Source: Planctomycetota bacterium (GTDB lineage Bacteria > Planctomycetota > B15-G4 > SIAN01). Taken from it: a stretch of DNA of 64,000 nucleotides. The DNA lies in NCBI GenBank assembly GCA_031409275.1, contig JANNXA010000016.1, positions 64,001-128,000 of the forward strand, read 5' to 3'. The notes under the pieces are model-generated. The model was not told the DNA's origin and ran no database searches. It was given only the letters and a program-made list of their open reading frames with translations. A program made the position numbers and the translations under genes. Below, one piece after another: positions 19,959-36,651 of this stretch; the first letter of the stretch is position 1; every line of letters starts with the position of its first letter.

Positions 19959-21106
19959 CAGAGGTTTCGCCGCAGCCACTCGAGCGTGACATCGACGCTG
20001 CCATCCACCGGCAGAGCGACCTCGACTTCGACCTTGTCGTGCGCAGGCTTCGTCGTTGGATGGCTGGCGCCGACCACTTCGAACGGCGCACCCGGCTGCT
20101 CGACGATCACCAACGTCGTCGCCGCGCCGCTGCCGTTCCTCACCTTGTAGACGAGCTTCGTGCGTTGGTCGTAGGCGACCACCTTGTTCCAGCGATCGCG
20201 CCGCTCGTTCTCGTTGCCCTGGAAGGTGACGTAGCGATCCACCACGAAGTCGCGCGCGTGACCGACGTAGAGCTTCGCCTTGCCGCCGAGCGGCGTCGCG
20301 GACAGCACGTCTTCGCCCAGCAACCCGGGTTGCCCGTTCTCCTGCGGCGTCAGCAGGCGGATGCGTCCCGCCGCCAGGAACGGCCGCGCCAACGGCGAGC
20401 CGGCGCGATTCTCGAGCTCGACTTCGATGGCAGGAAGGGCGCCGTAGCGCGCCGGATCGAGGACGTAGCGCCGCTTGACCGGGACCTGCTCGACGCGGAA
20501 CAGCTCGACTTCGCGCCGCTCCCCTTGCGCGAGCGTCAACGCGGCGAGTTCGCCGCCGTCGAAGACGACGCGTGCGGCGTCGAGATCCTGGCCCGAGCGG
20601 TTGGTCACTTCGACCGTCCCGACCAGCGTCATCGAAGTGCCCGCCGCGTCGAGCAGACCGCTGTAGGCGACGCGCCAACCGATGCCGGCCAGCAGGTAGC
20701 GCGCGGTCAGCGTTGCCGTGCCCGCGTTGCCCGCGTCGACGTCGAAGTAGGTCATCGCGCCGCGCCGGCGAATCTTCTCGCGCTGCGTGATCGAGGCGCT
20801 GCCGCTCGACGGAGTCACGTCGAAGCGCAGCGAGCCTTCATCGAGCCGCTCGCGACTCCAATCGAAGCGCAGGCGATTGGGGCCCTGCGCCAGCGTGATC
20901 TTGCGCGTCGTGGCGACGCTCGCCGGCTGGTCGCTGGTGAGGCGCAGCGTGACCGTGTCGGGCGCGGTCGGCACGACCACTTCGACGAAGCCGTCGCCGT
21001 CGGGGCGAACCGGCGCTTGCGCGAGGAGCGCTGCCGGAACGACCACGCCGGAGAAGAGCGCGGCGAGCAGCGCGCGGGCAATGACGGTGGGCGTGGAGTG
21101 GTTCAT
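19955..21106 (-). CDS. DUF4139-like secreted protein
   Basis: Signal peptide; ITLAQGPNRLRFDW, YLLAGIGWRVAY, VTNRSGQDL, LAAGRIRL. ATGA overlap with the upstream paralog. Confidence 0.7.
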   Translation of the reverse strand: MNHSTPTVIARALLAALFSGVVVPAALLAQAPVRPDGDGFVEVVVPTAPDTVTLRLTSDQPASVATTRKITLAQGPNRLRFDWSRERLDEGSLRFDVTPSSGSASITQREKIRRRGAMTYFDVDAGNAGTATLTARYLLAGIGWRVAYSGLLDAAGTSMTLVGTVEVTNRSGQDLDAARVVFDGGELAALTLAQGERREVELFRVEQVPVKRRYVLDPARYGALPAIEVELENRAGSPLARPFLAAGRIRLLTPQENGQPGLLGEDVLSATPLGGKAKLYVGHARDFVVDRYVTFQGNENERRDRWNKVVAYDQRTKLVYKVRNGSGAATTLVIVEQPGAPFEVVGASHPTTKPAHDKVEVEVALPVDGSVDVTLEWLRRNLW

Positions 21107-22350
21107 GGGTGGAGGTTCGTCTTCTTGACGGAGTAGGTGAGCTCGACCTTGCCGCCGGCGGGGACGTCGATCTTCCATTCGAGCGTCGTCTGGTCCTTGC
21201 GATTGGCGGGCGCGCTCGACGCGGTGAGCTCGAACGATGGCGTCGAGACGTGCTCCGTGACCGTGAGAGCGCGCGCGTCGGCGGCGCGGCTCTCGAGGAG
21301 CAGCTTCACGCTCTCCGTCTCGGAGTAGGAGATCAGCGCTTTGTTGTAGTCGCCGAAGACGAGGTCGCCGCGCTGCAGGTCGACCACCGTGCGCTCCACG
21401 GCGAAGTCGTTGGTGGGCCCGAGGTCGAGTTCGAGTTCCTGGCCCGGCGCGAGCGGCCCGAGTCCGCCGCTGCGCACGAAGCGCTCGGTCGCGGTCGCCT
21501 CGCGCTCGACCAGGAAGAGGCTGCCCGGCTGCAGCGTGACGCCGCCGAGCCCCGCATTCGCGGCGTTCGCCACCTTGGCGACCCGCCACACGCGCCCGCC
21601 CCAGCCGTTCACGTCGAAGCGCCATTCGAGCGTCGTCGCCAGCTCGCGTTTGGCGAGCGCGACGCGCCGCACGGTGACGCCATCGGGCAGCGAGAGCGGC
21701 GCGCCGAACGGCACCACCGTGTGCTCGGCCAGATCCTGCGCGAGCGGCGGCGTCGGCAGGCCGGGGGCGGCGTCGGGAGCCGGATCGGGCGCGCGGCCGT
21801 GCAGGACCGCGCTCGATGGCACGGTCCGGACCACGCCGAAGACGGCGCGCACGTCCGCCTGCGTGAAGCTCTCGCCGCTGCCGTTGCTGACTTCGAGCTC
21901 CTGCACCAGGTCGAGCGTCCACTTGGCCGCGTCGAAGGCCGCGGTGTAGGCCACGCTCGCCGCGAGGCCGCGCGCCGCGTAGCGCAACCGCAGCCGCTCG
22001 GGCCCCGGCTTCGTCGCCTCGAGCTCGACGAAGGTCGTGTTGCCGAGGTCGTCGCGTCGGAACAGCGAGACGACTTTCACTTCGCCGGCGCGGTCGAGCG
22101 GCACCACCTCGAGCGACGCGACATCGGCGTTGCCGCGCACGAAGTCGAGCCGCACCGACGAGCGTCCCTGCGCGAGGAGCACCGCCACCGTCTCCTCGAC
22201 GATCGTCAGATCGCCGGGATAGACGAGCAGGCGCGGGATCGAGGCGGCGGGCGCGGGAGCGCCTTGCGGAGACGCGGCGACCAAAGCAGCGCCGCCAGCG
22301 AGCAGCGCGGCCAGCACCGTCGCACCGCGGAGAGGGACGAAGCGATGCAA
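21103..22350 (-). CDS. DUF4139/DUF4140-like secreted protein
   Basis: Signal peptide; LLVYPGDLTIVEE, VSNGSGESF, GLGGVTLQPG; C-terminal LEWKIDVPAGGKVELTYSV. TTG start is uncertain. Confidence 0.72.
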   Translation of the reverse strand: MHRFVPLRGATVLAALLAGGAALVAASPQGAPAPAASIPRLLVYPGDLTIVEETVAVLLAQGRSSVRLDFVRGNADVASLEVVPLDRAGEVKVVSLFRRDDLGNTTFVELEATKPGPERLRLRYAARGLAASVAYTAAFDAAKWTLDLVQELEVSNGSGESFTQADVRAVFGVVRTVPSSAVLHGRAPDPAPDAAPGLPTPPLAQDLAEHTVVPFGAPLSLPDGVTVRRVALAKRELATTLEWRFDVNGWGGRVWRVAKVANAANAGLGGVTLQPGSLFLVEREATATERFVRSGGLGPLAPGQELELDLGPTNDFAVERTVVDLQRGDLVFGDYNKALISYSETESVKLLLESRAADARALTVTEHVSTPSFELTASSAPANRKDQTTLEWKIDVPAGGKVELTYSVKKTNLHP

Positions 22351-22389
22351 GCGAGACTCCTTCGCGAGAGACGAGCGGTGCGACGCTAA

Positions 22390-22547
22390 GAGCGTCTAAC
22401 AGAATGGACGCGTCGCGCCGAGACCGCGCGAGGCAGCCCAGGACGAGGAGACCGAAGCAGGCGACTCCGAAGAGTCGCCGATGGAGGTCGACGAAGTCAT
22501 GGGCGGCCGCAGCCGGTCGAACGCAGCGGACATTCTGTTAGGCGCTC
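22390..22547. mobile_element. 158-bp MITE-like element, copy 2
   Basis: Terminal inverted repeats GAGCGTCTAACAGAATG / CATTCTGTTAGGCGCTC (1 mismatch), flanked by TAA on both sides (22387-22389, 22548-22550). Same length as copy 1. Confidence 0.8.
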
Positions 22548-22558
22548 TAAGGGCCGAT

Positions 22559-23533
22559 TCACTGCGCCGCCAGCGCCTCGTCGAGCAACTTGACCAGCGC
22601 ATCGCGGTCGTACGCGTACTGCTGCCCACCGTTCAACTGCACCACGCGCGCGAGCGCCGCCTTGATCGTCGTCGCGGCCTCGGCCTGGTTCGGCACGACC
22701 AGGTAGCGACGCTTCGGCTGCGGGGAGGTGAGCGCGTGGAGGAACGCCTGCGCCACCTCGTCGGGCTCCTTGTACTGCGCGCGATCGGTCGGGCCGGCGA
22801 GGAGCCGCTCCATCTGCTTCTCGTAGCGCGAGCCCTTGCCCGTGTAGCCGGCGTCCAGCAGCCGCTGGCGCATGTTCACCATGATCTCGCTCTTGTAGTT
22901 GCCCGGGTCGACCAGGCTCACCGCGACGCCGAAGGGCGAAAGCTCCGCGGCCAGCGTGTCGCTGAACGCCTCGATCGCGTGCTTGCTCATCGTGTAGGCG
23001 CCGCCCATCGGCCACGTGACGATGCCGGAGGTCGAGCCAGTCGTCGCGACGCGTCCCTTGCTCTCGATCAGGAGCGGCGCGAACGCCTGCGTCATGCGGT
23101 AGGGGCCGTAGACGTTGGCATCGAGCTGGAAGTCGAGGTCGCTCTCGCGCAGCTCGATCAGCGGGCCGAGCACCGCGACGCCGGCGTTGTTGATGAGCCC
23201 GTAGAGCCCGCGCCCGCCGTCGCGCACCGTCTGCACCGCGGCGTCGATCTGCTCCTGCTTCGTCACATCGAGCTCGATCGGCTGCACGTTCGCGAGCTTG
23301 CCGAGCTCCGCGAGGTCGGCCTCCTTGCGCGCGCCGGCGTAGACGAAGAAGCCGTTCGCCGCGAGCAGCTCGGTCGTCTTGCGGCCGATGCCGGAGCTGG
23401 CACCGGTGACCAGCACCGCGCGCCGCGGCGACGCCGCGGGCGGCGAGGAGTGCGCCGCCGCGTTGCGCAACGACCACCAGCCGGCAAGGAGCGCCACGGC
23501 TCCGCACGCCACGACGATGCGCCACCGATGCAT
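22559..23533 (-). CDS. SDR family oxidoreductase with N-terminal signal/anchor
   Basis: VLVTGASSGIG, LDVT, LINNAG, YTMSK (YxxxK), VSLVDPG. Confidence 0.93.
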   Translation of the reverse strand: MHRWRIVVACGAVALLAGWWSLRNAAAHSSPPAASPRRAVLVTGASSGIGRKTTELLAANGFFVYAGARKEADLAELGKLANVQPIELDVTKQEQIDAAVQTVRDGGRGLYGLINNAGVAVLGPLIELRESDLDFQLDANVYGPYRMTQAFAPLLIESKGRVATTGSTSGIVTWPMGGAYTMSKHAIEAFSDTLAAELSPFGVAVSLVDPGNYKSEIMVNMRQRLLDAGYTGKGSRYEKQMERLLAGPTDRAQYKEPDEVAQAFLHALTSPQPKRRYLVVPNQAEAATTIKAALARVVQLNGGQQYAYDRDALVKLLDEALAAQ

Positions 23534-23833
23534 GCCTCGCTCCATTTCGACCTGCGGGAAAGGCGCGCGCGACTTCGGGCGCGAGGCGGGGGAGGCTACG
23601 AGGGCCGAGCGGGAAGGGCGAGCTGTCGAGCTTTGGGAACAGGAAGGCACCAGTTGATCGGGAGGTGACCGCGCAGGATCGTCACCCCGCCACAAGGAGT
23701 CTCCCCTGGGAAACGGCGCCTCACCGATTCTCCTGACCCGTTCACCCGCCGATTGCGCCTCAGATTCCGGCGGCCGCTCCCGACACAGCGCCCCGATCCA
23801 CCTTCTCGTGTCGAGCTTCCTCCGGAGACCAAC

Positions 23834-24430
23834 ATGGCACAGCGAAAGACCCCCTCGAAGCAGCGCACCGCAGCGAGCCCGTTCGTCGAGTTGACGATCG
23901 AGCAGCTCTACGAAGAGTCGCGGAAGATCGCACACGCGATGTTCCGGAACGAGCCGAGATCCGTCTCCTTCTCGCCGACCAGCATCGTCCATTCGGTGCT
24001 CGCCGACGAGGCGGCGCGCGGCTCGCTGCCGAGCGCCTCGTCCCCCCTCGATCCAACCGAAGCAACGCATCTCCTGCGTCGAATCCGCGTGGCAATCCGG
24101 AACAAGCTGATCGACCGCGCACGCGGCCGTCGGGCGGGGAAGCGCGGCGGTAACGCCAAGCGAGTCGAGCTCGATGAAGCGATGCGAGCCGAGGAACTCG
24201 GACCGGCAGAGATCGCTGAGATCCACGACCTCACCGAGCACCTCATGTCGAACGTGAACGCAATGGATCGCCAGCAGGCGGAGGCGTTCACGTTGCAGTT
24301 CTTCCACGGGCTGACCGTCGAGGAGGTCGCAGCGATCCTGGAAATCCCGATGGAAGCAGCGAAGACGCGGGCGCGCCGCGGTCGGGAGTGGATCGCCGCC
24401 CAAATGCGCCAGCAGAGCGGCGAGGGGTAA
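23834..24430 (+). CDS. ECF-type RNA polymerase sigma factor (TIGR02999/ECF_like, kinase-associated type)
   Basis: LYEESRKIAHAMFRNE...SFSPTSIVH, IRNKLIDRARGRRAGKRGG, and sigma4 FFHGLTVEEVAAIL...AREWI. Directly upstream of a Ser/Thr kinase. Confidence 0.9.
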   Translation: MAQRKTPSKQRTAASPFVELTIEQLYEESRKIAHAMFRNEPRSVSFSPTSIVHSVLADEAARGSLPSASSPLDPTEATHLLRRIRVAIRNKLIDRARGRRAGKRGGNAKRVELDEAMRAEELGPAEIAEIHDLTEHLMSNVNAMDRQQAEAFTLQFFHGLTVEEVAAILEIPMEAAKTRARRGREWIAAQMRQQSGEG

Positions 24431-24462
24431 TCGCGCAGCACCTCGACACCGCTCGCGCACGA

Positions 24463-24494
24463 ACGAGGGCGCCTCCACGCGGAGGCGCCCTCGT
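24463..24494. repeat. Perfect 14-bp inverted repeat between the ECF and kinase genes
   Basis: ACGAGGGCGCCTCC-ACGC-GGAGGCGCCCTCGT; no U-tract on either strand. Confidence 0.75.
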
Positions 24495-24541
24495 CACGCC
24501 TGACGCCCGCGGCTACGCTCCCCCGCCCGAGGGGGTGATCG

Positions 24542-27500
24542 ATGGCTCAGAAGAGAGTGCGACCGACCGCCGCGGCGATACCGGCGACGGCGCCGGTCCC
24601 GACGCACACTCGAACGGCTGGGAGCGACTCTGCGGTCGAGATCGAGGGCTATCGCATCGTCACCCGGCTCGGCGAGGGTGGCTGCGGAGTCGTCTATCTC
24701 GTCGAGGAGTTGAAGCCGGAGCGCGGCTCTGCGCAGCAGTTCGCGGCGAAAGTCCCGCGCGACGATTTCGACCTCGATGCAAACGCTACTCGCCGCCTCT
24801 CCGCGCTTCTCGAGGAGGAGATCAGCAAGCTGCGGGAGCTCCGTGACGAGCCGTCGATTGCCGCCTACCGCGGCACGCCCAAGGCGACCCGGAACGGCAA
24901 GCCAATCCCCTGCGTCCTCACCCGCTACCTGAGCGGCGGCGAACTCCTCAAAGAACTCGACGCGAGGTCGCCGCTGCACATGCGGCTCGCCGCGATGAGC
25001 GAGGTCTGCTACGCCGTCGCGCTTCTGCACGATCGTCACATCGTCCACGGCGACCTCAAGCCCGCGAACCTCCGCTACGACCGGCTGATCCGCGGCAAAC
25101 CCGTGCTGCTCGACTTCGGGCTCGCTGAACCGCTGCGACGGATCGGCCGCGATGCGGAACCGCAGATCGCCTCGCAACGGATCGCGGGAACGCTCGGCTA
25201 CATGGCACCCGAACGACTGCAGCGCGCCGCAGACTGCAACGACGCCGTCGACGTCTTCGCGTTGGGAGTGATCACGTTCGAGCTGCTGACGGGAAAGCGC
25301 GCCTTCTACGACTTGAAGGGACCCGGACCGGACGCGGTCGTGACGGCCATGAAGAGGTGCGCCCCCGAGGTCGAGAGTGCGCTCAATTCAATCCTCGCCG
25401 CCAAGAAGCTGGACGAGCTGCTCCCCTACCTGCGCACCGCGCTGGCGCTCGACCCGAAGCAGCGAACCATCCGTGCACGCAACTTGGCCCATTGGCTCGA
25501 CCACTTCGCGGTGCTGGAACGATTCCGGACCATCCTCCCGAAGCAGGGCTCCAGTGACACGGCGTTCGACACCTACAAGCGGCAGTTCCTCGAAGGGCTG
25601 AAGCACTTCCCGCAGCTCGGCGTCGGCTATCAGTCGGGTGGAAAGGGTGTGCAGGTCCAGACGAGGAGCCCGTACCAGCTCGACCTGCCCGAGATCAAGA
25701 TCGACCTCGTGGCGCAACGCAGGGGGACCGAGCACGCGACGCTGGCAGCCAGCAGCGAAGCCGGCACGATGTCATTCGACGCGCGCGACGCGTTCGAGCA
25801 GGCGCGAAGCGAGCTGCAAGACCAATCGAAACTCGGGTTCTTCCTCATCGGCGGCCCCGGCACCGGCAAGTCGACCTTCTTGCGTCTCCTCGCACTGCAA
25901 GCGATGACGAGCGACGGGCGCCAACGGCTTGGCCTCGGTGAGTCGCGCGTCATTCCCGTGATGGTGCAGCTCGCCGCCTACAAGGATTTCACTCCGCCGG
26001 ACCAGAGATCGCGAGGGAGGTCGAAGGTCCCTCAGCTCAGGCTGGCCCAATTCGTCAATTCCGTCATCGCGCAGACTTGTGCCGACTGCCGCGTTGAACC
26101 CGCGGTGCTTGCAAAACAGGGCGACCTGCTTCTCCTGCTCGACGGACTCGACGAGGTCGAGACGCAGCGCGACGAAATCGTGACGCAACTTTGCGATGCG
26201 CGTTGGCCGTGGAAGGGCCACCCGACGGTCGTCACTTGCCGGCCGGCTGGATTCGAGAGCCTCAAGCCCAAGCCGACCGATCACTTCGCGATCTTCCAGC
26301 TCGGCGGAGTCGACCTGCGCACGGCTCAGGCATTCGTCCGCAAGTGGTTTTTCCACGTCGCGACGAGCCACACCGTGCGCTCGAAGGAGAACGACCCGGG
26401 GGCCCATGGATCCGCGGACCGCATCGCGCAGCACGAACAAATGGCCGAATCGCTCTGCCAACAGTTGCGCGAACGGCGGATCGAGCTGTCGTCGCTGGTG
26501 TCGATCCCCCTGCTGCTGACGATGGTTTGCATCGTCCATCGCTTCCGCTGCCGGAACGGGCAAGTCGACCAGCCGCTCCCGGCGACGATTCACGATCTGT
26601 ACGAGGCCTTCGTGCAGACGGCGCTGCGGGAGTGGCCGCACTTCCGGAGCAAGGCGTCGCCAGGACATCGCCACGATTCACGGAAGCCCGCCGCGAACGA
26701 AGGCAACGACGGCGGAGACGATCCGACGACGCCCGACGAACTGCGGCTTGCCCTGGAATCGATCGCGCTCTATCTCCGCAGCGTGGCGTTGAAGGCGAAG
26801 GACGACGCCAAGAAGCAGACCACTCCGGCGACGCGCACGACCGAGCGTGCCGGTCGCCAGGCACTGGACACAATTCTGAAGGATGAGGCGTGGGCCGCCC
26901 TCCCGTGGGAGGGCGCGAAGTTCGAGCGCTTCTGGCAATTGGCCAACGACGAGTCGGGGCTGTTCGCCAACCACGGCGGCGCTGACCAGTGGGGCTTCCT
27001 CCACCTCGGCATCGAGGAGCACCTTGCCGCCAGCGCGTTGGCGCGCGACCCGCTCCGGGTTGGCTTCGGCATCGACCAGCTGGTCGAGCGCTTCGATGCG
27101 GTTGCGTTGCGAGAGGTCATCGGCGACTTCGCCGCGACCGCCCATGAGCTTCATGTCGAGGCGCTATTGGCCGCGGTGCTGCGCTCCGATCGGATCGCGG
27201 CCTTCGAGCAGCCGCTGGAAGTGGTGCTGCGCGCGCTGACGCGCCGTTTCGCGCCGACGGGGCGTGTGACGTCTGATCCTCGGCAGTCACAGATTCGCAC
27301 GCGCTTCCGGCAGATGCTGCTGCCAATCCTTCTGCAACCGGCCGCCGCCGCGGAGAAGCTTCGAGCTCGGCAGCTCGCCGCACGGATGGCGGCATTCCGT
27401 CAGCTGCGCGGGTGGGTTGTTCTGGCTTCCGAAGCCTGGAAGGAGCTCCGCTCAGCGTTGGCGGCGGATCACCACTTCGGCTCTCTCGAACTCGAGCTTT

Positions 27501-28258
27501 GGGCTCGCAACGAACTCGAAACGCGTGAATTCCAACGCGATCCCAAGAGCGGGATCGTGTTCGTGAAGGTGAAGGGAGCGCGCTTCGGCTTCGCGCAGGA
27601 CAAACCGGATGCAAGCTGGAACCACGACTATGAGCTGCAGCGCCACCAGCAGAAGCGCGAACGAGTCGTCGACCTGGCCGACTTCTGGCTGGCGACTGCC
27701 CCCGTCACCAACGAGCAGTACCGCCGCTTCCTCGACGATCGCGATGGCGATGCGGAGAACGACGATCTCCCGGAGTCGATGACGACTGCGGGCTTCGATG
27801 GACCGCAGCAGCCCGTCACCGGAGTCACCGCACTCGACTGCGAGAAGTTCTGCCGTTGGTGCTCGTCGCAAAGCGGTCCGCCGATCCGACTGCCCACCGC
27901 GGATGAGTGGGAGTACGCCTGCGTGGCGGGCAACGCCGCGCAGCAGGAGTACTGGAGCGGAAACGGAGAGGAAGCACTTGCAGCCGTCGGCTGGTACGCC
28001 GCGAACTCGGGCGGTACCACCCATCTGGTCGGACAGAAGCCGCCAAACGCCTTCGGACTCCACGACCTGCATGGCAACGTCTGGGAGTGGTGCGCTGACG
28101 ATCACCCATGCGACGCCGGCAGCCGCGTGGTTCGTGGCGGCAGCTTTGCCTTCGACGTCGCCGCGATCGCGCGGTCGGCCTTCCGGAACGCCTTCCAGCC
28201 GGGCTTTCGCTTCCGGTTCTTGGGCTTCCGCGCCGCCAAGGGTGTCTCCACTTTTTGA
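24542..28258 (+). CDS. Ser/Thr kinase - NACHT NTPase - FGE-sulfatase/CLec protein; DGR target
   Basis: Kinase: GEGGCGVVY, AAK, HGDLKPAN, DFG, GTLGYMAPE, DVFALG. NACHT: GGPGTGKST, LLLLDGLDEV, VTCRP, IPLLL, FLHLGIEEHLAA. FGE/CLec: PVTNEQY, RLPTADEWEYAC, PNAFGLHDLHGNVWEWC, RVVRGGSF, LGFR. Confidence 0.95.
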   Translation: MAQKRVRPTAAAIPATAPVPTHTRTAGSDSAVEIEGYRIVTRLGEGGCGVVYLVEELKPERGSAQQFAAKVPRDDFDLDANATRRLSALLEEEISKLRELRDEPSIAAYRGTPKATRNGKPIPCVLTRYLSGGELLKELDARSPLHMRLAAMSEVCYAVALLHDRHIVHGDLKPANLRYDRLIRGKPVLLDFGLAEPLRRIGRDAEPQIASQRIAGTLGYMAPERLQRAADCNDAVDVFALGVITFELLTGKRAFYDLKGPGPDAVVTAMKRCAPEVESALNSILAAKKLDELLPYLRTALALDPKQRTIRARNLAHWLDHFAVLERFRTILPKQGSSDTAFDTYKRQFLEGLKHFPQLGVGYQSGGKGVQVQTRSPYQLDLPEIKIDLVAQRRGTEHATLAASSEAGTMSFDARDAFEQARSELQDQSKLGFFLIGGPGTGKSTFLRLLALQAMTSDGRQRLGLGESRVIPVMVQLAAYKDFTPPDQRSRGRSKVPQLRLAQFVNSVIAQTCADCRVEPAVLAKQGDLLLLLDGLDEVETQRDEIVTQLCDARWPWKGHPTVVTCRPAGFESLKPKPTDHFAIFQLGGVDLRTAQAFVRKWFFHVATSHTVRSKENDPGAHGSADRIAQHEQMAESLCQQLRERRIELSSLVSIPLLLTMVCIVHRFRCRNGQVDQPLPATIHDLYEAFVQTALREWPHFRSKASPGHRHDSRKPAANEGNDGGDDPTTPDELRLALESIALYLRSVALKAKDDAKKQTTPATRTTERAGRQALDTILKDEAWAALPWEGAKFERFWQLANDESGLFANHGGADQWGFLHLGIEEHLAASALARDPLRVGFGIDQLVERFDAVALREVIGDFAATAHELHVEALLAAVLRSDRIAAFEQPLEVVLRALTRRFAPTGRVTSDPRQSQIRTRFRQMLLPILLQPAAAAEKLRARQLAARMAAFRQLRGWVVLASEAWKELRSALAADHHFGSLELELWARNELETREFQRDPKSGIVFVKVKGARFGFAQDKPDASWNHDYELQRHQQKRERVVDLADFWLATAPVTNEQYRRFLDDRDGDAENDDLPESMTTAGFDGPQQPVTGVTALDCEKFCRWCSSQSGPPIRLPTADEWEYACVAGNAAQQEYWSGNGEEALAAVGWYAANSGGTTHLVGQKPPNAFGLHDLHGNVWEWCADDHPCDAGSRVVRGGSFAFDVAAIARSAFRNAFQPGFRFRFLGFRAAKGVSTF
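28109..28239 (+). repeat. DGR variable region (VR)
   Basis: 131-bp ungapped match to 30388-30518 with 14 mismatches, all at TR adenines. Encodes the C-terminal part of the CLec domain. Confidence 0.97.
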
Positions 28259-28433
28259 CTTCACCACCTCACCACGAAGATCGCTGCGCCCACGATCGAC
28301 ACCGGCGTTGACAACCGGGCCCACCCGCGGTGTCGTGCTCGTATTTCGTTCGATTGACGGTGTGCTGGTAGGTGGGTAGTGGGCGGAGGGCGCGTAGTGC
28401 GACGTCGTGTGCGTCGCCGCTGGAGCCACGCCC

Positions 28434-28982
28434 TTGCGAGTCCATCTCCTGACGCTGCGATACAGCAGCACGCTTGGCGCCTTCGATACGGCACCGCTCA
28501 CCGCGCTGACCCACGGCTGCGAAGTCGTCGCCTTCCGCGAGCACTTCTTCCAAGTCGCGGACGTGCCGCATGCGCTGTGCGTCGTCACCGTCCATGACCC
28601 GCCGCCGCTTGCGCAAGGAGGCCACGAGGCGCGCTCCCGTGCGGACCACGGGGCGCCTTCCGGCTTGCCGCGCACCCGCACGCCTCGTGAAAGCCGTGAC
28701 CTCCGTCCCTTCGCGGCGCTGGATGAGGCACAACGCCAGCTCTTCAACCGGCTGCGTGAATGGCGATCGGCGACGGCGAAGTCGGAGGGGGTCCCTCCGT
28801 ACGTGCTGCTCACCAATCGCGAGGCGGTGCGCATCATCCTCGCCGCACCCGATTCGCTGACCACGCTCGGCCAGCTCGAAGGGATCGGCGCCAGCAAGGT
28901 CACGCGCTACGGCCATGCGATCCTCGGCTGCCTCCAGGGTGCGCCCGTCGCCAGCGCGCAAGCCGCGGAGCCGACGTCGTGA
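28434..28982 (+). CDS. HRDC-domain DGR accessory protein
   Basis: Likely TTG start (MRVHLLTLRY) 8 nt after GGAG; alternative GTG at 28407. C-terminal HRDC: LFNRLREWRSATAKSEGVPPYVLLTNRE...LGQLEGIGASKVTRYG. Confidence 0.88.
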   Translation: MRVHLLTLRYSSTLGAFDTAPLTALTHGCEVVAFREHFFQVADVPHALCVVTVHDPPPLAQGGHEARSRADHGAPSGLPRTRTPRESRDLRPFAALDEAQRQLFNRLREWRSATAKSEGVPPYVLLTNREAVRIILAAPDSLTTLGQLEGIGASKVTRYGHAILGCLQGAPVASAQAAEPTS

Positions 28983-29356
28983 CGGCCCCCATCGATCGTC
29001 CGCGCGCACGCGAAGCCGGACCGGAACTCCTGGTGCTGGCCCGTTTCGAGGAGGGCACTCGGTGGCTCCTGGATCACACCGCACGCTGGCCGAAGCACGC
29101 GCGCTTCACCCTGACGCAACGGGTCGAGAACCATGCGCTCGACATCGTCGAGCTGCTGGTCCACGCGCGCTACGAGCCGCGTGGGCGCGCGGCACGGCTT
29201 GGCGACGTCAACCTGCGCCTCGAACGGATGCGCTTCCTGTTCCGGCTGGCGCATCACACGCGGGTGATGCATGCCGCCGGCTTCGAGACGGCCATGCGTT
29301 GGCTCGACGAGAGCGGGCGGATGTTGTTCGGCTGGCGCCAGGCGCTCGCGCCATGA
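28979..29356 (+). CDS. avd: DGR accessory variability determinant (Avd-like four-helix bundle)
   Basis: About 125 aa, basic; WPKHARFTLTQRVENHALDI...LERMRFLFRLA...ESGRMLFGW. Overlaps HRDC (GTGA) and RT (ATGA). Confidence 0.92.
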   Translation: MTAPIDRPRAREAGPELLVLARFEEGTRWLLDHTARWPKHARFTLTQRVENHALDIVELLVHARYEPRGRAARLGDVNLRLERMRFLFRLAHHTRVMHAAGFETAMRWLDESGRMLFGWRQALAP

Positions 29357-30369
29357 GACGGAAAGGCGGTCATTGGCCGCTCATCACCCGCTTCGACCAT
29401 CTCTGCGCCTCGGCATGGCGAGCCGCCCGCGGCAAACGACAGACGGCCACGGTCGCGCGGTTCCTCGAACGACTCGAACCCGAGGTGCTGCAGCTGAAGC
29501 GCGAGCTCGAGACCCAGAGCTGGCGACCGCAACCACCCACCCGTTTCCGCATCCTCGATCCGAAGGAGCGCACGATCACCGCAGCGGCGTTCCGCGATCG
29601 AGTCGTCCACCACGCGTTGATCGACGCCATCGAGCCAGCCCTCGAGCGCCGCATGGTCGCCTGCAGTTTCGCCTGCCGGAAGGGCATGGGAACGCATCGC
29701 GCGCTCGATCACGCCCGACGACTGGTGCGCCGTTTCGGCTGGTTCCTCAAGCTCGACGTGCGCAAGTGCTTCGACTCGCTGCGGCACGACGTGGTCCTGG
29801 CAGCGGCTCGGCGGGTCATCAAGGGACGCGCGACGCTCGCCTTGATCGAGACGATCGTCCGCCACGACGCGAGCGCCGTCGCCGAGGGGCGCGGCCTCCC
29901 GATCGGCAGCCTCACCAGCCAGTGGCTCGCGAACCTCGTGCTGGACCAGCTCGACCACTTCGCGCTGGAGCAGCTGCGCGTTCCCGGCTACGTGCGGTAC
30001 ATGGACGACTTCGCGTTGTTCGGCGGTTCCAAGGGAGAGCTATGGCGCTGGCATGCGGCCGTCGAGCGCTTCCTCCGCGAACGGCTCGGTCTCGAACTGA
30101 AGTCGCAGGCCACCTGCCTCGCGCCGACCACGGAGGGGCTGCCGTTCCTTGGCTGGAGGATCCACCCGGGGACGACGCGGTTGAAGCCGGAGAGTCGGAG
30201 ACGATTACTGCAGCGCCACCGACGACTGACGCGGTCGCTGCAACATGGCGGGATGACGGAGGAGCAGTTCGCGGTGCGAGCACGCAGCCTGTTCGTCCAC
30301 GCCTCAGCGGGATCGACTCTCGCATGGCGCCGCCTCGTTTCGACGAGGGAGCCCATGCCTCGAACTTGA
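29353..30369 (+). CDS. DGR-class reverse transcriptase
   Basis: DPKERTI, FRDRVVHHA, SFACRKGMGTHRA, LKLDVRKCFDS, GLPIGSLTSQWLAN (DGR-type IGxxxSQ), YVRYMDDF, FLGW. 338 aa with no maturase or endonuclease extension. Confidence 0.97.
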   Translation: MRRKGGHWPLITRFDHLCASAWRAARGKRQTATVARFLERLEPEVLQLKRELETQSWRPQPPTRFRILDPKERTITAAAFRDRVVHHALIDAIEPALERRMVACSFACRKGMGTHRALDHARRLVRRFGWFLKLDVRKCFDSLRHDVVLAAARRVIKGRATLALIETIVRHDASAVAEGRGLPIGSLTSQWLANLVLDQLDHFALEQLRVPGYVRYMDDFALFGGSKGELWRWHAAVERFLRERLGLELKSQATCLAPTTEGLPFLGWRIHPGTTRLKPESRRRLLQRHRRLTRSLQHGGMTEEQFAVRARSLFVHASAGSTLAWRRLVSTREPMPRT

Positions 30370-30387
30370 TTGAACGTCCGTCGGCCG

Positions 30388-30518
30388 TGCGACGCCGGCA
30401 ACCGCGTGGTTCGTGGCGGCAGCTTTGCCAACGACGACGCCGCGAACGCGCGGTCGGCCTACCGGAACGCCAACCAGCCGGGCAATCGCAACCGGAACTT
30501 GGGCTTCCGCGCCGCCAA
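30388..30518 (+). ncRNA. DGR template region (TR)
   Basis: AAC-rich copy of the VR starting 19 nt after the RT stop; 8 AAY codons in the VR frame. Confidence 0.96.
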
Positions 30519-30690
30519 TGTGTCGCCAACGCCCGATCGGCGCGCTCGCCGTGCGAACGGCATCGCGTCGCAGAGCACGGGACACCCAGGTCGACGGACG
30601 TGGCCGAGGTGACGAGCCTCGGACGAATAGCTGTGGCCGCGCCGGGGCTCGTAGGCCGCAAGGCCGAGCGCTCCGGCGCGGCGTTTCTTC
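30519..30690 (+). ncRNA. Structured 3' part of the DGR RNA (spacer), ending in a terminator-like hairpin
   Basis: Hairpins GCCGT-GCGA-ACGGC (30548-30561), CCGAGG/CCTCGG (30604-30622), and GCCGCGCCGG...GGCC-GCAA-GGCC...CCGGCGCGGC (30636-30682) followed by GTTTCTT. Confidence 0.6.
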
Positions 30691-30821
30691 AGGACACCGG
30701 GTGCGACAGGAGCACTTGTCCGCGGTTTGACCCCGTGCGTCGGCAACTGCGCCTGAGTGGGCTCCAGGGCGAGGAATGGTGAAGCGCCTCGCCCTCTCAT
30801 CCCAGAACGAGGGTCACTTCA

Positions 30822-31934
30822 ATGGATCGACTGGAACGTAAGGACAAGCAGCTGCTCGTGGCGCCGAGCGGCGAGTGCGTGGACTGCGGGAGTTTCGACT
30901 ACGAGCCAACTGACGCGGGACGCGAAGCGATCCGCGCGGTGCGGACTCGCGCCCTGCAGAAGCGGGGTCGCCTGGCGGCTTCGATGGCCGGTCGCTGGCT
31001 GACCTTGAACGCGGCAGCGATGGGCGCGGCGGCGCTGCTGCCGATCGGGGCGCAGTGGCCGTTCCTGATTGGAGCGGGTGGCATCCTGCAGCGGTTCGCC
31101 ACCTCGGGGATGCTGCACGAGTCGGCCCATCTCACCCTGCTCTCCCGGCGCAAGTGGAACGATGCGATGGGCCGCATCCTGGCGGCGCTGTCGTTCGTCG
31201 ACTTCGACGACTGGAAGGCTGCCCACATGAAGCACCACGCGGAGTTGGCCACCATCCGCGACCCGGAGTACGCCGAGCTGACGCTCCACGGCATGAAGCT
31301 CGACGGCATGTCGCCGAGCGAGTTGGCCCGCATGCTCGTGGCCCCGTTCCAGCCCGCGATGTTGCTGCGCGCCGCGAAGGAGAGCCTGTCGGTCTTCCGC
31401 AAGCGCACGCCGTGGATCGTCTGGGGGGCGCTCGCGAGCCTCGCGCTCGCCTGCGGGCCGCTCGGCATGACGTGGCTGCTGACGTGGTTCATCGCCAGCT
31501 TCTCGACGCGCAAGTTCGTGTGGCTGATCGCCAACGCGACCGAGCACTCCTTCAAGTTGCAGAAGGAGATGGAGGACGGCTCGACGCCGGCCGGCCGGAA
31601 GCTGCGGCAGATGCCCCTGCGGCTGCGGTGGCTGGCCATCTCGCGCGAGCGGCGCGGCGCGCTGTCTCGGCTGATCAGCCCGGAGTCGGAGGCGCTCTAC
31701 CACGCGACCCACCACTACGACGCGGGTGCGCCGGGCGGCGGACTGAAGGAGCTGCACGCCACCCTTCTGCAGCACCAGCCGGGCTATGCGGAAGTGCACA
31801 AGATCACGGACGGCCTCTTCATCGCGAAGCCTGGGCGCGCGGCGGCGCTGGATGACTTGCGCGCCGGAGCCGCTTCGGACGACGCGATCATCAAGTCGGG
31901 TCTCTGCAACGCCGAGGCGCGTCGCGCGGCGTAA
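30822..31934 (+). CDS. Membrane fatty-acid desaturase-family protein
   Basis: Three His boxes (HESAH, HMKHH, HATHH) plus an EH motif, with hydrophobic segments between them. Confidence 0.8.
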
Positions 31935-32058
31935 GCCGTCAGTTCGGATCGCCTGTTCGACCGAGATCGGAGTCATCGACTCCGTGCGCCCGGGTGCTCT
32001 CCTGCAAGAGCACTCGGGCGCTCCCTCCCGCCCCATCGCCGCGGCATCCTGCGCCGCC

Positions 32059-32400
32059 ATGCAAGCGAGCCGGATTCTCTCGATCCTGTTGCGGCTGCAG
32101 ACGCAGGGGCGCGTCTCGGCGCGCGCGTTGGCCGAGGTCTTCGAGGTCTCGGTGCGGACGATCTACCGCGACATCGATGCGTTGAGCGCGGCGGGTGTTC
32201 CGGTCGTGGCGGAGAAGGGGCGCCACGGCGGCTTCGCGTTGCGCGATGGCTACCGCACGCGGCTCCGCCGGCTGGCCGATCGCGGCCGGATCGCGCCGGG
32301 GCTGCTGGCCGACCTCGTGCTGGTCGAGGAGGCGGAGTGAACGGTGGCGGACGGCGAAGGCGTGGATCGGCGGGAAGCTCGCCTACGACCGAGCGCGCGG
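32059..32400 (+). pseudogene. Chimeric remnant: YafY/WYL-regulator N-terminal HTH joined to an amidohydrolase C-terminal fragment
   Basis: [14 protein letters not shown]...[21 protein letters not shown]...[13 protein letters not shown] (HTH_11) switches abruptly to [18 protein letters not shown]. It then continues in another frame as AWIGGKLAYD. Confidence 0.7.
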
Positions 32401-32596
32401 CGAGGACGTGGCCGCGCTCGAGGCGGCCGCACCACCGCCGCTCGAGTCGCGCGGTGGCGACGGCAAGAGCGGCGGCTGCTGCTCGAGCGCCGCTTCCCGC
32501 CGCCGGGCCGGTCGTCCGCTCGCCGGAATCCTTGAGCCGAGCGCGCCGCGGTTCCGGCGGAGGGGTCCTGAAGTCCCTGCTTCAGGAGCCACTCCG

Positions 32597-34717
32597 ATGA
32601 ATCGTTCGATGCGCTTCCCGATCCTCTTGGCGACGGTCGCGGCGGCCGCGGCGTGCGGCGGCGGCGGCGGCAGCAGCCAGGCGAAGAAGGTCGTGACGCA
32701 GCTCTCCGTCGACTTCCCGCCGGCGCGCTCGATGACGAGCAGCACGACCGTCACGATGCGCGGCCGGGCGAGCAACGGCGCCGACGTCGCCTCGCTACAG
32801 GTGAACGGCATCCAGGCCGCCAGCGCCGACGGCTTCCAGAACTGGACCGCCACGGTGTCGCTGCCCGTCGCCTCCAACACGCTGCGCGCGGTCGCGACCG
32901 ATCGCGTCGGGCGTACGCTCGGGCCGATCGACCGGACGGTCGAGATCTCGACACCGCCGGTCAGCCCGCAGCGGCCCACCGTCGACCCGAATCGCCAGCA
33001 ACTCCTCCTCGGCCAGGGCAATCTCGATCCGTTCGGGCTCGTCGCGCTCGACGTCCCGACCGGGCGGTTCGTCGCCGTCTCGGGTCCGACCCGCGGCGCC
33101 GGGGCGTCCTTCGACGGGTTCGTGATGTCGGTGGCGGTCGACGCCGCGTCCGACGTGGCCTACGTCGTCGAGTTCCTCCCGACCCGCATCCGCGAACTCG
33201 ATCTCGCCAGCGGCGATCGCGCCATCCTCTCCGACGACGCGAGCGCCGGCCCCGACCTCGACTTCCCGACGGACGCCGACCTCGACTTGCCTCGGAACCG
33301 CCTCCTGGTGGCCGATCGCGACTTGAGGGCGATCGTCGCCGTCTCCCTCGCCGACGGCTCGCGGTCGATCCTCTCCGACGCCACCCACGGGAGCGGGCCG
33401 GCGTTCAACCTGCCGGACTCGATCCAGGTGGTCGCGAACCAGGGACGCGCGCTGGTCGGGGACGTGATCCTGGGCGCGCTCGTCTCGGTCGACCTCGCCA
33501 GCGGCGCGCGATCGATCGTCTCCGATGCGACGCGCGGCTCGGGCCCGGCGTTCGTCTCGATCGGCGACGTGGCCTTCGACCTCGCGAGCGGCGCGGCGCT
33601 GGTCGTCGACCAGAGCCTCGAGGCGCTCCTCCGCGTCGACCTCGTCACCGGCAACCGGACGATCGTGAGCGACCGGACGACCGGCGGCGGCGCCGCGCTG
33701 CGGTCGCCCGTCGGCGTCACGCTGCTCGCGGACGGGAGCGGCCGGGCGGTGCTGGTCGACAGCGGGCAGGGGACGCTCCTGGCCGTCGACCTCGCGACCG
33801 GCGCCCGGACCGACCTCGAGACGCTGCGGATCGGCGCCGGCCAGCGCCTGGGGCGGGCGAACATCGTCGCGGCGAACCCGGTGAACGGCCACCTCTTCAC
33901 CGCCGGCTTCGACTCGGCGAACCTCTTCGAGATCGACCCGGCGACGGGCGACCGCGCCGTGGTCGCCTCGGAGACGCGCGGCAGCGGGCCGGCGCTCGGG
34001 TTCGTCGTCGCCCTCGCCGTCGCGCCGTCCCTGCGCAAGGCGTTCGTCGCGGACATCGCGCTCGACGGGCTGTTGGCCGTGGACCTCTTCAACGGCGACC
34101 GGACCATCGTCTCGAGCGACTCGATCGGCTCCGGCCCCGCCTTCGACACGCTCGATGCGATCACGATCGACGAGGGCCGGAACCTCGCGATCGTCATGAG
34201 CGAGACCTTCGGCGGCGGCGGCGCCCGGCGCCTGCTGAACGTCGACCTCGCGACCGGCGATCGCAGCGAGCTCTCGGGGCCGACGCGCGGCTCGGGACCG
34301 GCCGCCTTCCGGATCGAGTCGCTGGCGCTCTCCGCCGACGGGATCACGCTCTTCGCCGTGGACGTCGGCCTGCGCGCCGTCTTCCGGATCGATCGCGCCT
34401 CGGGCGACCGGACGATCGTCTCGGACGCGACGACCGGCAGCGGCCCCTCGGTCTCCTTCCTCCAGCCGGGACTCGTGCTCTCGGCCGACGAGGAGAAGGC
34501 CTACATCGTCGACTTCAACTCCGGCCTGCTGGAGGTCGATCTCGCCACCGGCAACCGCGTTGCGCTCGCCGGCCCCACGGTCGGCTCCGGCCCGCAGATC
34601 CAGGGCAGCCTCGCCTTCGGCACCGCGCCCGATCGACTCTTCTCGACCGCCTTCGGCAGCTTCGGCGTCCTCGAGATCGACCTCGCGACCGGCGACCGCG
34701 TGATCGTCTCGCACTGA
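32597..34717 (+). CDS. Lipoprotein with Ig-like domain and 12 beta-propeller-type repeats
   Basis: Lipobox-like AAAAC-GGGGGS; Ig-like segment; 12 repeats of about 50 aa with consensus VDLATGDRTIVSDATRGSGPAF. Confidence 0.8.
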   Translation: MNRSMRFPILLATVAAAAACGGGGGSSQAKKVVTQLSVDFPPARSMTSSTTVTMRGRASNGADVASLQVNGIQAASADGFQNWTATVSLPVASNTLRAVATDRVGRTLGPIDRTVEISTPPVSPQRPTVDPNRQQLLLGQGNLDPFGLVALDVPTGRFVAVSGPTRGAGASFDGFVMSVAVDAASDVAYVVEFLPTRIRELDLASGDRAILSDDASAGPDLDFPTDADLDLPRNRLLVADRDLRAIVAVSLADGSRSILSDATHGSGPAFNLPDSIQVVANQGRALVGDVILGALVSVDLASGARSIVSDATRGSGPAFVSIGDVAFDLASGAALVVDQSLEALLRVDLVTGNRTIVSDRTTGGGAALRSPVGVTLLADGSGRAVLVDSGQGTLLAVDLATGARTDLETLRIGAGQRLGRANIVAANPVNGHLFTAGFDSANLFEIDPATGDRAVVASETRGSGPALGFVVALAVAPSLRKAFVADIALDGLLAVDLFNGDRTIVSSDSIGSGPAFDTLDAITIDEGRNLAIVMSETFGGGGARRLLNVDLATGDRSELSGPTRGSGPAAFRIESLALSADGITLFAVDVGLRAVFRIDRASGDRTIVSDATTGSGPSVSFLQPGLVLSADEEKAYIVDFNSGLLEVDLATGNRVALAGPTVGSGPQIQGSLAFGTAPDRLFSTAFGSFGVLEIDLATGDRVIVSH

Positions 34718-34970
34718 AGGCCAGGATGCCGCAGTCGAGGTAGCGGCAGAGCGTCGAAGTCAGCGATCGCGGGGCGCTCGCGTACCAGCTCTTCGCCGGT
34801 GTGGGCTGGCGCGCCACGGACGCTCTCGAGCGGACGATGGAAGGCCGTTATCCGGGCACGCGTGGTGTCGAGCTCGAAGGCGCGTGAAACTCCTTCGACG
34901 CCGACGATGAGCACCTCGGCGTGCTGCTTGGCATGCGCTGGCTGCTCTGAGCGACGGCGACGCCCCTCAC
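34715..34970 (-). pseudogene. Possible degraded IS91-family transposase N-terminal fragment
   Basis: The minus strand encodes RYLDCGILAF (about 34716-34753), resembling the motif that starts IS91 transposase zinc-binding domains. RRRRSEQ lies upstream in another frame. No intact ORF. Confidence 0.35.
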
Positions 34971-35190
34971 GGGCGGCTGGATTCCGGAGTCGGCTGGACT
35001 CGATCTGCACCACGAACAAGTCCTGGTGTCGGTGGGACTTCAGCCGCCAGCCGAAGCGTGTGCACCGCTCGCTCGCGATCTGAAGTCCGAGCACGAGCCG
35101 CGAGCCTTCGACCTCGACGCGCACGCACCCGCGAGTACCGAGCGCTCCGCGACCAGCCGATCATCGTGCGAGGCGCAGGCGGCGAGTCGC

Positions 35191-36651
35191 TCACACCAGC
35201 CGCAGCACCGACACGAGTCCGCCCTTCTGCGCGACGTTGACGACCCGGCGACGCGAACCACGACCCAGCACGCCGAGGCGCTGCTCGCTGGCGTAGAGGC
35301 CGAGCACCGTGAAGTAATCGGCGAGGCCGACGTTGCCCTCTTCGTCGATGACGGGGAAGTCCTTCTCGGCGACCGGACGGTAGCCCTGCACGACCCAGCT
35401 GCCGGGGTTCTTCACGCCGCGATCGATCGCCTGCTCCCACGCGCGCTCGGAACAGTCGAGCCCGACCAGGATGCCCGATCCGCCGTAGCTGCGATTGGGC
35501 TTGAGCAGCAGCGACTCGCGTTCGCGCGCGAGCCACGGCAAGAGGTCGATCGACTCGCCCTTGGGCGACGTGGTGCGCCCGGCGTCGACGAGCCGCGTCC
35601 AGGGCACGTGGCGCTTGAAGAGTCGCCGCTCGTTCGCCGTGAAATGGCGGGCGAAGCGCTCCTCGGTGAAGAGATGGAACGCGCTCTTGTGGTCGAACTC
35701 GCCGGCCAGCGAGCTGATGCAGCGGCCGCTCTTCAGAGCGTGCTTGATGCCGCTCATGTCGACGCCCGACTCCTCCTGCGCGGCGAGGTCGTTGATCTCG
35801 TGGTCGCGGTAGATGATGTCGATCCCGTGTTCCACGCTGCCGCCCGCCGCCGCCGGCCGCTCTTCGACGTAGACCAGCTCGCCATCCTTCACGCGCAGCT
35901 CGCGCGGATCGACGTGCCAGCAGTTGACCCCCAGCGCGCGGAAGAACTTGACGTTCTCGGGGAACTCCTCGACGCCGCCCTTCAACCCCTTGTATTGGCA
36001 GAGCGCGACGTTGAAGCGGTGGAGCTTCAAGTCGCGCGCGTGGTCGGCCAGCACTTCGAGCATCACGAGACGCGGGTCGTCGTTCATCTCGAGCAGCAGC
36101 GTCGGCGCCAGCTTGCGCAGCTCCGGCACCAGCGTCTTCAGCAGGATCGCGTCGGTCGCAGGGGCGAGGTAGGTGCCGCCGGCGCCGATCGGGTTGTATT
36201 CGAAGAATTGCGTGCTCTTCACCCAGTCCTTCACGCCGAAGTCGCTCGTCGCGTCCCAGCGCCCGAAGAGGACGTCCGCCTGCTTGCCGCCGAGCTCGGT
36301 GAGCCAGCGCTCCTCGCGCGGCGTCATCGCGAGGCAGCGGCGCGCCTCGGGCACCTCGCGCCAGAGGCGGTAGAGCTTCTGCCACGCCCCCTCCATCACC
36401 CGGCAGATCTGGTGGAGGTAGTTGCGCTGGTTGCCGCCGAGGACACGCGGACGCAGCAGGATCGGCGTCGGCTGCGGCTTGCCGTCCTCATCCTCGTAGA
36501 CGACGCCGCGCGCGAGCCCCTCCTCGCGCACCTGCCGCTTCACCGCCCTCAACACGTCCGGCGGGATCATCTGCAGCATCTCGTTCAGCGACGAGCCGAG
36601 GCTGTCCTTCAGGTTGACGAATTTGACCGGCAGGTGCTTCGTCTTCCCCAT
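35191..36651 (-). CDS. Circularly permuted ATP-grasp (glutathionylspermidine synthase-like) peptide ligase
   Basis: GRWD, FFEYN, IDIIYR, HVPWTR, LLLKPNRSYGGSGILVG, WVVQ, VVNVAQKGG. Confidence 0.8.
   Translation of the reverse strand: MGKTKHLPVKFVNLKDSLGSSLNEMLQMIPPDVLRAVKRQVREEGLARGVVYEDEDGKPQPTPILLRPRVLGGNQRNYLHQICRVMEGAWQKLYRLWREVPEARRCLAMTPREERWLTELGGKQADVLFGRWDATSDFGVKDWVKSTQFFEYNPIGAGGTYLAPATDAILLKTLVPELRKLAPTLLLEMNDDPRLVMLEVLADHARDLKLHRFNVALCQYKGLKGGVEEFPENVKFFRALGVNCWHVDPRELRVKDGELVYVEERPAAAGGSVEHGIDIIYRDHEINDLAAQEESGVDMSGIKHALKSGRCISSLAGEFDHKSAFHLFTEERFARHFTANERRLFKRHVPWTRLVDAGRTTSPKGESIDLLPWLARERESLLLKPNRSYGGSGILVGLDCSERAWEQAIDRGVKNPGSWVVQGYRPVAEKDFPVIDEEGNVGLADYFTVLGLYASEQRLGVLGRGSRRRVVNVAQKGGLVSVLRLV

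Follow-up and report, generated by a model that had tools for sequence, protein, structure and literature searches.

Several described systems stand close to the diversity-generating retroelement (DGR) reported here, which lies in a stretch of 64,000 nucleotides (the window, to which all coordinates refer) of contig JANNXA010000016.1 from a Planctomycetota bacterium (GCA_031409275.1). Kinase-STAND-FGS proteins (STAND, signal transduction ATPases with numerous domains) with a DGR have already been described (PMC8195603), and so have DGR sensors of the NACHT-C-type lectin kind (PMC10907252). Kinases are counted among NACHT effectors (10.1101/2022.07.19.500537). Concerning cellular NACHT-lectin DGR targets, the relevant passage of PMC10907252 states that none has been characterised so far. 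HRDC cassettes and FGE-type targets bearing kinases are likewise known from Wu et al. (PMC5758913), according to whom HRDC and Avd occur together in about half of the HRDC DGRs. Sigma factors of the extracytoplasmic function (ECF) group ECF43 are phosphorylated at a Thr site, as described in PMC13147305 and PMC7826278.

In this study, we describe a locus with the plus-strand order ECF sigma factor, target gene, HRDC, Avd, reverse transcriptase (RT) and template repeat (TR). It is a complete, intact chromosomal DGR: besides the target, HRDC and Avd it has an RT, a TR and a structured 3' RNA that shows covariation. Past mutagenic retrohoming at its variable repeat (VR) is established with certainty. 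We propose, with a probability of roughly 0.7, that this DGR rewrote the tip of the lectin in a receptor of kinase-NACHT-lectin layout, likely a sensor inside the cell whose signal passes through the kinase.

Template repeat, variable repeat and cassette

The original prediction, aligned by hand, had paired 131 bp of VR and TR without gaps and had counted 14 mismatches, every one of them at an adenine of the TR. Computed alignment of the VR (28109..28239, plus strand) with the TR (30388..30518, plus strand) reproduces every one of these figures. Non-A mismatches, which the prediction had named as evidence against itself, number zero at 107 non-A positions. Identity falls to background beyond both ends of the block, and the chance of all 14 mismatches falling on A is P = 8e-13. 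Thirteen of the TR-to-VR changes are A>T and one is A>G. The TR holds 24 adenines, of which 22 lie inside the 43 shared codons, spread over 14 codons with eight AAY among them, exactly as first counted. The predicted space of up to 4^22 DNA variants amounts to 1.76e13 on computation (1.05e13 protein variants), and stop codons are indeed impossible. The GGS and GFR scaffold codons are the same in TR and VR, as had been claimed, despite a mutable A in the AGC of GGS. In the target, the VR encodes aa 1190-1233, where nine residues differ from the TR and six of these are now Phe.

The TR was also compared with the rest of the genome (5.6 Mb, 93% complete) for remote VRs, by BLAST and by an A-wildcard scan of both strands of all its 55 contigs. 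Neither found a further target; the scan returned the TR and the single VR, the next best site having 45 non-A mismatches. A degenerate pattern of the TR's distinctive spacing had 0 matches in metagenome contigs.

The HRDC accessory gene (28407..28982, plus strand) matches PF00570 with 54.7 bits and has its probable start at TTG 28434, judged from a homologue at a related locus (L093). The following Avd gene (28979..29356, plus strand; pI 11.3) scores 80.3 bits on NF033474 (cut-off 80), matches PF22296 and overlaps the HRDC stop and the RT start by 4 nt each. The RT (29353..30369, plus strand) is an uninterrupted protein of 338 aa with a PF00078 domain and an intact YMDD motif. It is 53-58% identical to its nearest cellular relatives, mostly from Planctomycetota assemblies, and at most 46% identical to viral RTs. 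The A-only alignment together with these profile matches supports the predicted DGR repeat pair and its past mutagenic retrohoming, and the identity of the locus as a DGR is virtually beyond doubt.

Behind the TR come a putative IMH* (IMH, initiation of mutagenic homing) and a structured 3' spacer that the predicted template RNA would include (30519..30682, plus strand). Across 15 close loci this flank forms 22 pairs, which are 95% paired and 15 of which changed on both sides, and none of 500 shuffles equalled this; the structure was derived from the same 15-sequence alignment on which covariation was scored. Genome searches gave 90 related loci, 60 of them with TR/VR pairs; among 79 metagenome loci, 28 had such pairs. 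A scan for promoters and terminators found nothing exceeding shuffles.

The genome holds three other PF00078 reverse transcriptases (C10:328-993, C47:67269-67904, C35:2034-2675). Beyond the cassette, 30822-32340 carries a fatty-acid desaturase-like gene and then a 93-aa HTH_11/DeoR-type regulator, possibly truncated.

Target receptor and neighbouring sigma factor

The target gene (24542..28258, plus strand) encodes 1238 aa with, according to Pfam, a Ser/Thr kinase (aa 37-309), a NACHT domain (434-603) and an FGE-type C-type lectin domain (1034-1233). The kinase motifs HGD, DFG and APE and the NACHT Walker A and B motifs are all present. The VR ends five codons ahead of the stop codon, at the 3' end of the C-type lectin fold. 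The lectin model (pLDDT 83.9) retrieved FGE-fold proteins with Foldseek, including TvpA of Treponema denticola (2y3c, TM 0.74). The protein has no clear membrane span and a single hydrophobic peak at aa 647-665, and PADLOC matches are restricted to its kinase domain. It is likely an intracellular sensor resembling NOD-like receptors (NLRs) that signals via its kinase. A kinase is absent from all 40 further NACHT-lectin homologues, in which TIR, SIR2, DUF4062 or phosphoesterase domains take its position.

Directly upstream lies an ECF43-like sigma factor gene (23834..24430, plus strand; the frame is open from 23753 and ATG 23834 is the likely start). Its product scores 78.9 bits on PF07638 (cut-off 21.1) and 73.5 bits on TIGR02999 (cut-off 126). 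It is divergent, with at most 37% identity to relatives, and holds SPTS where these have QPTA; the Thr of the ECF43 phosphorylation site is kept. Between the sigma and target genes, a perfect 14-bp inverted repeat with a 4-nt loop (24463..24494) occurs as a single copy in the genome. All four sigmas of the ECF43-like family in this genome adjoin a Ser/Thr kinase, as do nine of the 11 best-matching sigmas in relatives. Since, moreover, the acceptor Thr is kept, the DGR target is probably the kinase of the adjacent sigma. No other kinase besides the DGR target lies near this sigma, and no anti-sigma was seen there. Conversely, a sigma-like gene precedes five of the 35 kinases in the genome. Whether the sigma factor is the output of the sensor we consider an even question. 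A literature search for DGR, ECF and kinase together returned PMC8195603 alone, whose ECF passages deal with other systems. ECF sigma and Ser/Thr kinase genes also stand beside the DGR, downstream of the TR, at two related loci (L092, L093); these kinases are not DGR targets.

The 3' end of the variable repeat

The block of TR/VR identity is followed by an imperfect repeat, the putative IMH facing IMH*. On the VR side the sequence goes on to resemble the TR 3' end, imperfectly, up to the stop codon (28240..28258, plus strand), the assignment as IMH following from the sequence and from the account in PMC5758913. Further downstream, 28297..28335 forms a perfect 8-bp stem with a 23-nt loop, which is not the canonical short GRNA-loop hairpin, and folding is not significant (z of -0.95 and -1.45 after the VR). 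A short-loop hairpin was found at 22 of 41 HRDC+Avd VRs, and PMC5758913 reports a GC-rich GRNA-loop hairpin after the VR in 34% of DGRs.

When motifs were sought in 39 VR flanks from HRDC+Avd cassettes, the window being excluded, a tandem octamer with the consensus TTTTACCCTTTTACCC emerged (mean 14.4 bits versus 6.7-7.2 in shuffles), mostly 19-37 nt past the GFR codons. Cassette types were assigned with custom hidden Markov models built for this analysis. In leave-one-out scoring, 30 of the 39 flanks reached at least 10 bits. The window carries the tandem pyrimidine octamer CTTCACCACCTCACCA at 28259..28274 (plus strand), about 27 nt past the VR. By the matrix trained without the window it scores 13.4 bits on the VR flank and -4.1 on the TR flank, and none of 3000 random 80-mers scored as high. 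Scores above 5 bits occur in one of 35 TR flanks; scores above 0 bits in none of 25 HRDC-only VRs and none of the 14 non-target FGE genes of the genome, where 12 octamer-like sites exist, the window copy included. At 8 bits or more, the held-out loci gave 16 of 18 HRDC+Avd VRs, 0 of 18 TR flanks, 0 of 11 HRDC-only VRs and one of 56 viral Avd-only VRs. Cassette type tracks RT lineage in a quick tree (built solely on the related loci of this analysis), and the link between octamer and HRDC is therefore not separated from descent. As a candidate signal for target recognition, the octamer may be read by HRDC and take the role that the hairpin has in Bordetella.

The octamer is unlikely to be a promoter that drives the accessory operon, since second targets that lie downstream of the TR or on the opposite strand carry it too (L015, L018, L040, L049, L052, L060, L068, L190). 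One target (L017:3-1349) has two tandem lectin domains, both diversified from one TR, with the octamer at the terminal VR only. Strict necessity of the octamer is not supported, since this internal VR shows 17 A-changes without it. The octamer was found neither by literature searches nor in passages of PMC5758913, PMC4891356, PMC3240598, PMC4372165 and PMC8144416; TR/VR alignment figures or supplements may show it. Viral Avd-only loci (L101-L177) have TCTG-based short tandem repeats of their own, with a period of about 8 nt, between VR and GC hairpin, so that periodic repeats of this short kind may be a general feature behind the VR, with a sequence specific to each lineage. Of 26 HRDC-only cassettes, 18 have a purine-rich tract behind the VR (e.g. 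L066, L083, L087, L088), as has one of 41 HRDC+Avd cassettes.

Activity, rival explanations and known systems

By analogy with the Bordetella model, an RNA with the TR and its structured 3' spacer would be copied by RT-Avd, copying errors would arise opposite A, and the cDNA would then replace the VR. The VR 3' end (IMH and tandem octamer, perhaps read by HRDC) may mark the recipient. A ligand at the variable surface would then trigger NACHT oligomerisation, a general behaviour of STAND proteins, and kinase activation, upon which the kinase might phosphorylate the adjacent ECF43-like sigma factor. The DGR is probably able to work. As a whole, a DGR-hypermutated NLR-like receptor wired to a phosphorylation-activated ECF sigma, plus an octamer marking HRDC+Avd DGR targets across many phyla, seems to us rather unlikely.

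The original prediction had also taken the lack of non-A drift as a sign of recent or ongoing activity, which proved to be weak evidence, because 42 of 70 related TR/VR pairs are equally clean (the pair filter favours such pairs) and 0 of 107 non-A differences bounds TR-VR drift only at <2.8%. In PMC5758913, 65% of DGRs are listed without non-A differences. The proposed search for VR polymorphism, carried out on contigs in place of reads, gave no variation. Five runs (X1-X5) carry the window or part of it, all as Logan contigs, X4 and X5 without VR coverage. In X1 and X2 (depth 18 and 21), perhaps the samples from which the sequence came, contigs span 27600-30800 in one piece with 0 differences. 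For X3, a VR contig that covers eight of the 14 changed sites matches the window exactly, and so does a TR contig. Rare variants would be lost, since these are contigs and not reads. One Phe-rich VR allele dominates the sampled population, most likely by selection or as a single tail draw. T>A rows in the contig comparison were TR pieces placed on the VR (14 differences, TR flanks loose) and not variants; a TR piece of X2 with 0 differences on the VR was presumably a counting artefact, as X2 is identical to the window across both repeats.

Several observations weigh against our reading. No VR variant appeared in any contig of X1-X3, which are three samples of one study. The element reads AAG at VR 28238-28240, a place at which AGG occurs in 35 of 39 related HRDC+Avd VRs whatever their TR; AGG is apparently a fixed IMH/IMH* difference in relatives, absent here, and its replacement could weaken homing. 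Within 160 nt after the VR there is no perfect stem of at least 6 bp with a 3-5 nt loop. Six related kinase-lectin targets of DGRs have 2 kb or more of upstream sequence (L012, L019, L023, L045, L067, L180), and an ECF43-like sigma lies directly upstream of none of them; the sigma link is local, not conserved. Finally, the characterised ECF43 kinases are membrane receptors as described in PMC13147305, and the target has no clear membrane span.

How do the rival explanations fare against this evidence? Three readings of the pair are refuted, namely a plain duplication that has since drifted, an artefact of assembly and a piece of a group II intron. Duplication is ruled out by the A-only differences and artefact by separately assembled contigs that carry both repeats, and although the RT gives 136.8 bits on TIGR04416, the cut-off is 300 and Rfam has no match within 20000-36000 of the window. 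A more serious rival holds that the DGR is intact in sequence yet silent or recently inactivated, the VR being the frozen product of a past event. The identical VR allele in the contigs of X1, X2 and X3, the AAG at the VR boundary together with the missing short-loop hairpin, and five RT positions off the 75% consensus (e.g. M112 for K) all fit such an element. However, its genes are uninterrupted and translationally coupled, and the 3' RNA structure and the octamer are kept. Contigs drop rare variants, and according to PMC8144416 purifying selection masks activity, which 20-50x cover under-detects. Moreover, drift is visible in a DGR of the same genus, but not in the window element. We therefore hold silence to be possible rather than probable. 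That DGR (L094; oriented positions 1063 and 3350) shows 12 non-A mismatches in 120 nt, some at the 5' edge, and may be a drifting DGR or one with an exchanged template.

The A>T skew, overlooked in the original prediction, could in turn stem from an RT that is by itself unusually prone to insert dA opposite template A. Relatives were counted in 70 TR/VR pairs from the 60 loci, after removal of one false antisense pair (L018); their changes are T 507, G 560 and C 151, hence 42% T. Against this share, 13 of 14 A>T gives P ~1e-4 by binomial and 7e-5 by codon-aware simulation, and among 102 cellular pairs the window shows the highest T share (0.93, runner-up 0.79). Held-out T shares are 44% (31 pairs from the 28 metagenome loci) and 31% (59 pairs from 58 of 80 viral loci). 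In vitro, dA is the main error of the BPP-1 RT, whose spectra are context-dependent (PMC7826257, PMC12875486). Yet allowing for over-dispersion among pairs raises P to 1.6e-3 to 2.5e-3 (beta-binomial) and to ~0.23 for the top of 102. Furthermore, T fraction is not common to VRs sharing one RT (r = -0.25, 10 loci; at L190, 8/15 versus 1/16), and the judgement concerns a single VR allele. An RT bias is thus improbable, and we interpret the skew, which is not clearly an RT property, as a tail draw or as the result of selection that favoured an aromatic surface. Regarding the output, the kinase may be the effector itself, phosphorylating host proteins in the manner of abortive infection, with the sigma as an unrelated neighbour. 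Kinases are known among NACHT effectors (10.1101/2022.07.19.500537), the slot is occupied by other domains in all 40 homologues, and neither the six related loci nor most kinases of the genome share the sigma adjacency. Against this stand the kinase beside every family sigma of the genome, the lack of an alternative kinase and the kept acceptor Thr, which leaves the effector kinase somewhat short of an even chance.

The TR/VR pattern is the defining, well-known signature of DGRs, and the finding as originally written is therefore ordinary. If true, the receptor-sigma wiring would constitute an evolvable sensor with a transcriptional instead of a suicidal output, and the cognate sigma would offer a simple reporter readout for ligand finding. 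The octamer is a short, mutable candidate which makes target recognition without a hairpin and the role of HRDC testable.

Concerning described systems, the DGR of T. denticola (Architecture C, FGE-sulfatase CLec1, category b in PMC5758913) shares HRDC, a C-terminal FGE-type lectin VR, A-only changes and a TvpA-like fold. The window differs in having HRDC and Avd and its TR after the RT, and the target in T. denticola is a lipoprotein, whereas here it is a large, apparently cytoplasmic kinase-NACHT fusion. The STAND/NACHT-FGS sensors with DGRs (PMC8195603, PMC10907252, 10.1101/2022.07.19.500537) have the same effector-NACHT-lectin layout, Walker A/B motifs and a DGR-diversified lectin, and a kinase is named as one possible N-terminal domain. 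In contrast, the window DGR has a single target, the kinase form is rare among its nearest homologues, and the window has a sigma partner, which the corresponding passages of those papers do not describe. With the ECF43/Hanks kinase pairs EcfK-PknS and EcfP (PMC13147305, PMC7826278) the locus shares a sigma directly upstream of the kinase, no anti-sigma and a Thr at the QTTA-type site; those pairs feature a membrane span and tetratricopeptide repeats, while the window combines NACHT and a hypermutated lectin with a divergent sigma. Finally, the DGR of Bordetella phage BPP-1 (PMC3240598, PMC7826257) follows the same TR/VR/RT/Avd logic with an AAY-rich template, but where it has a short GC hairpin with a GRNA loop after the VR, the element described here is cellular and has a tandem pyrimidine octamer and HRDC.

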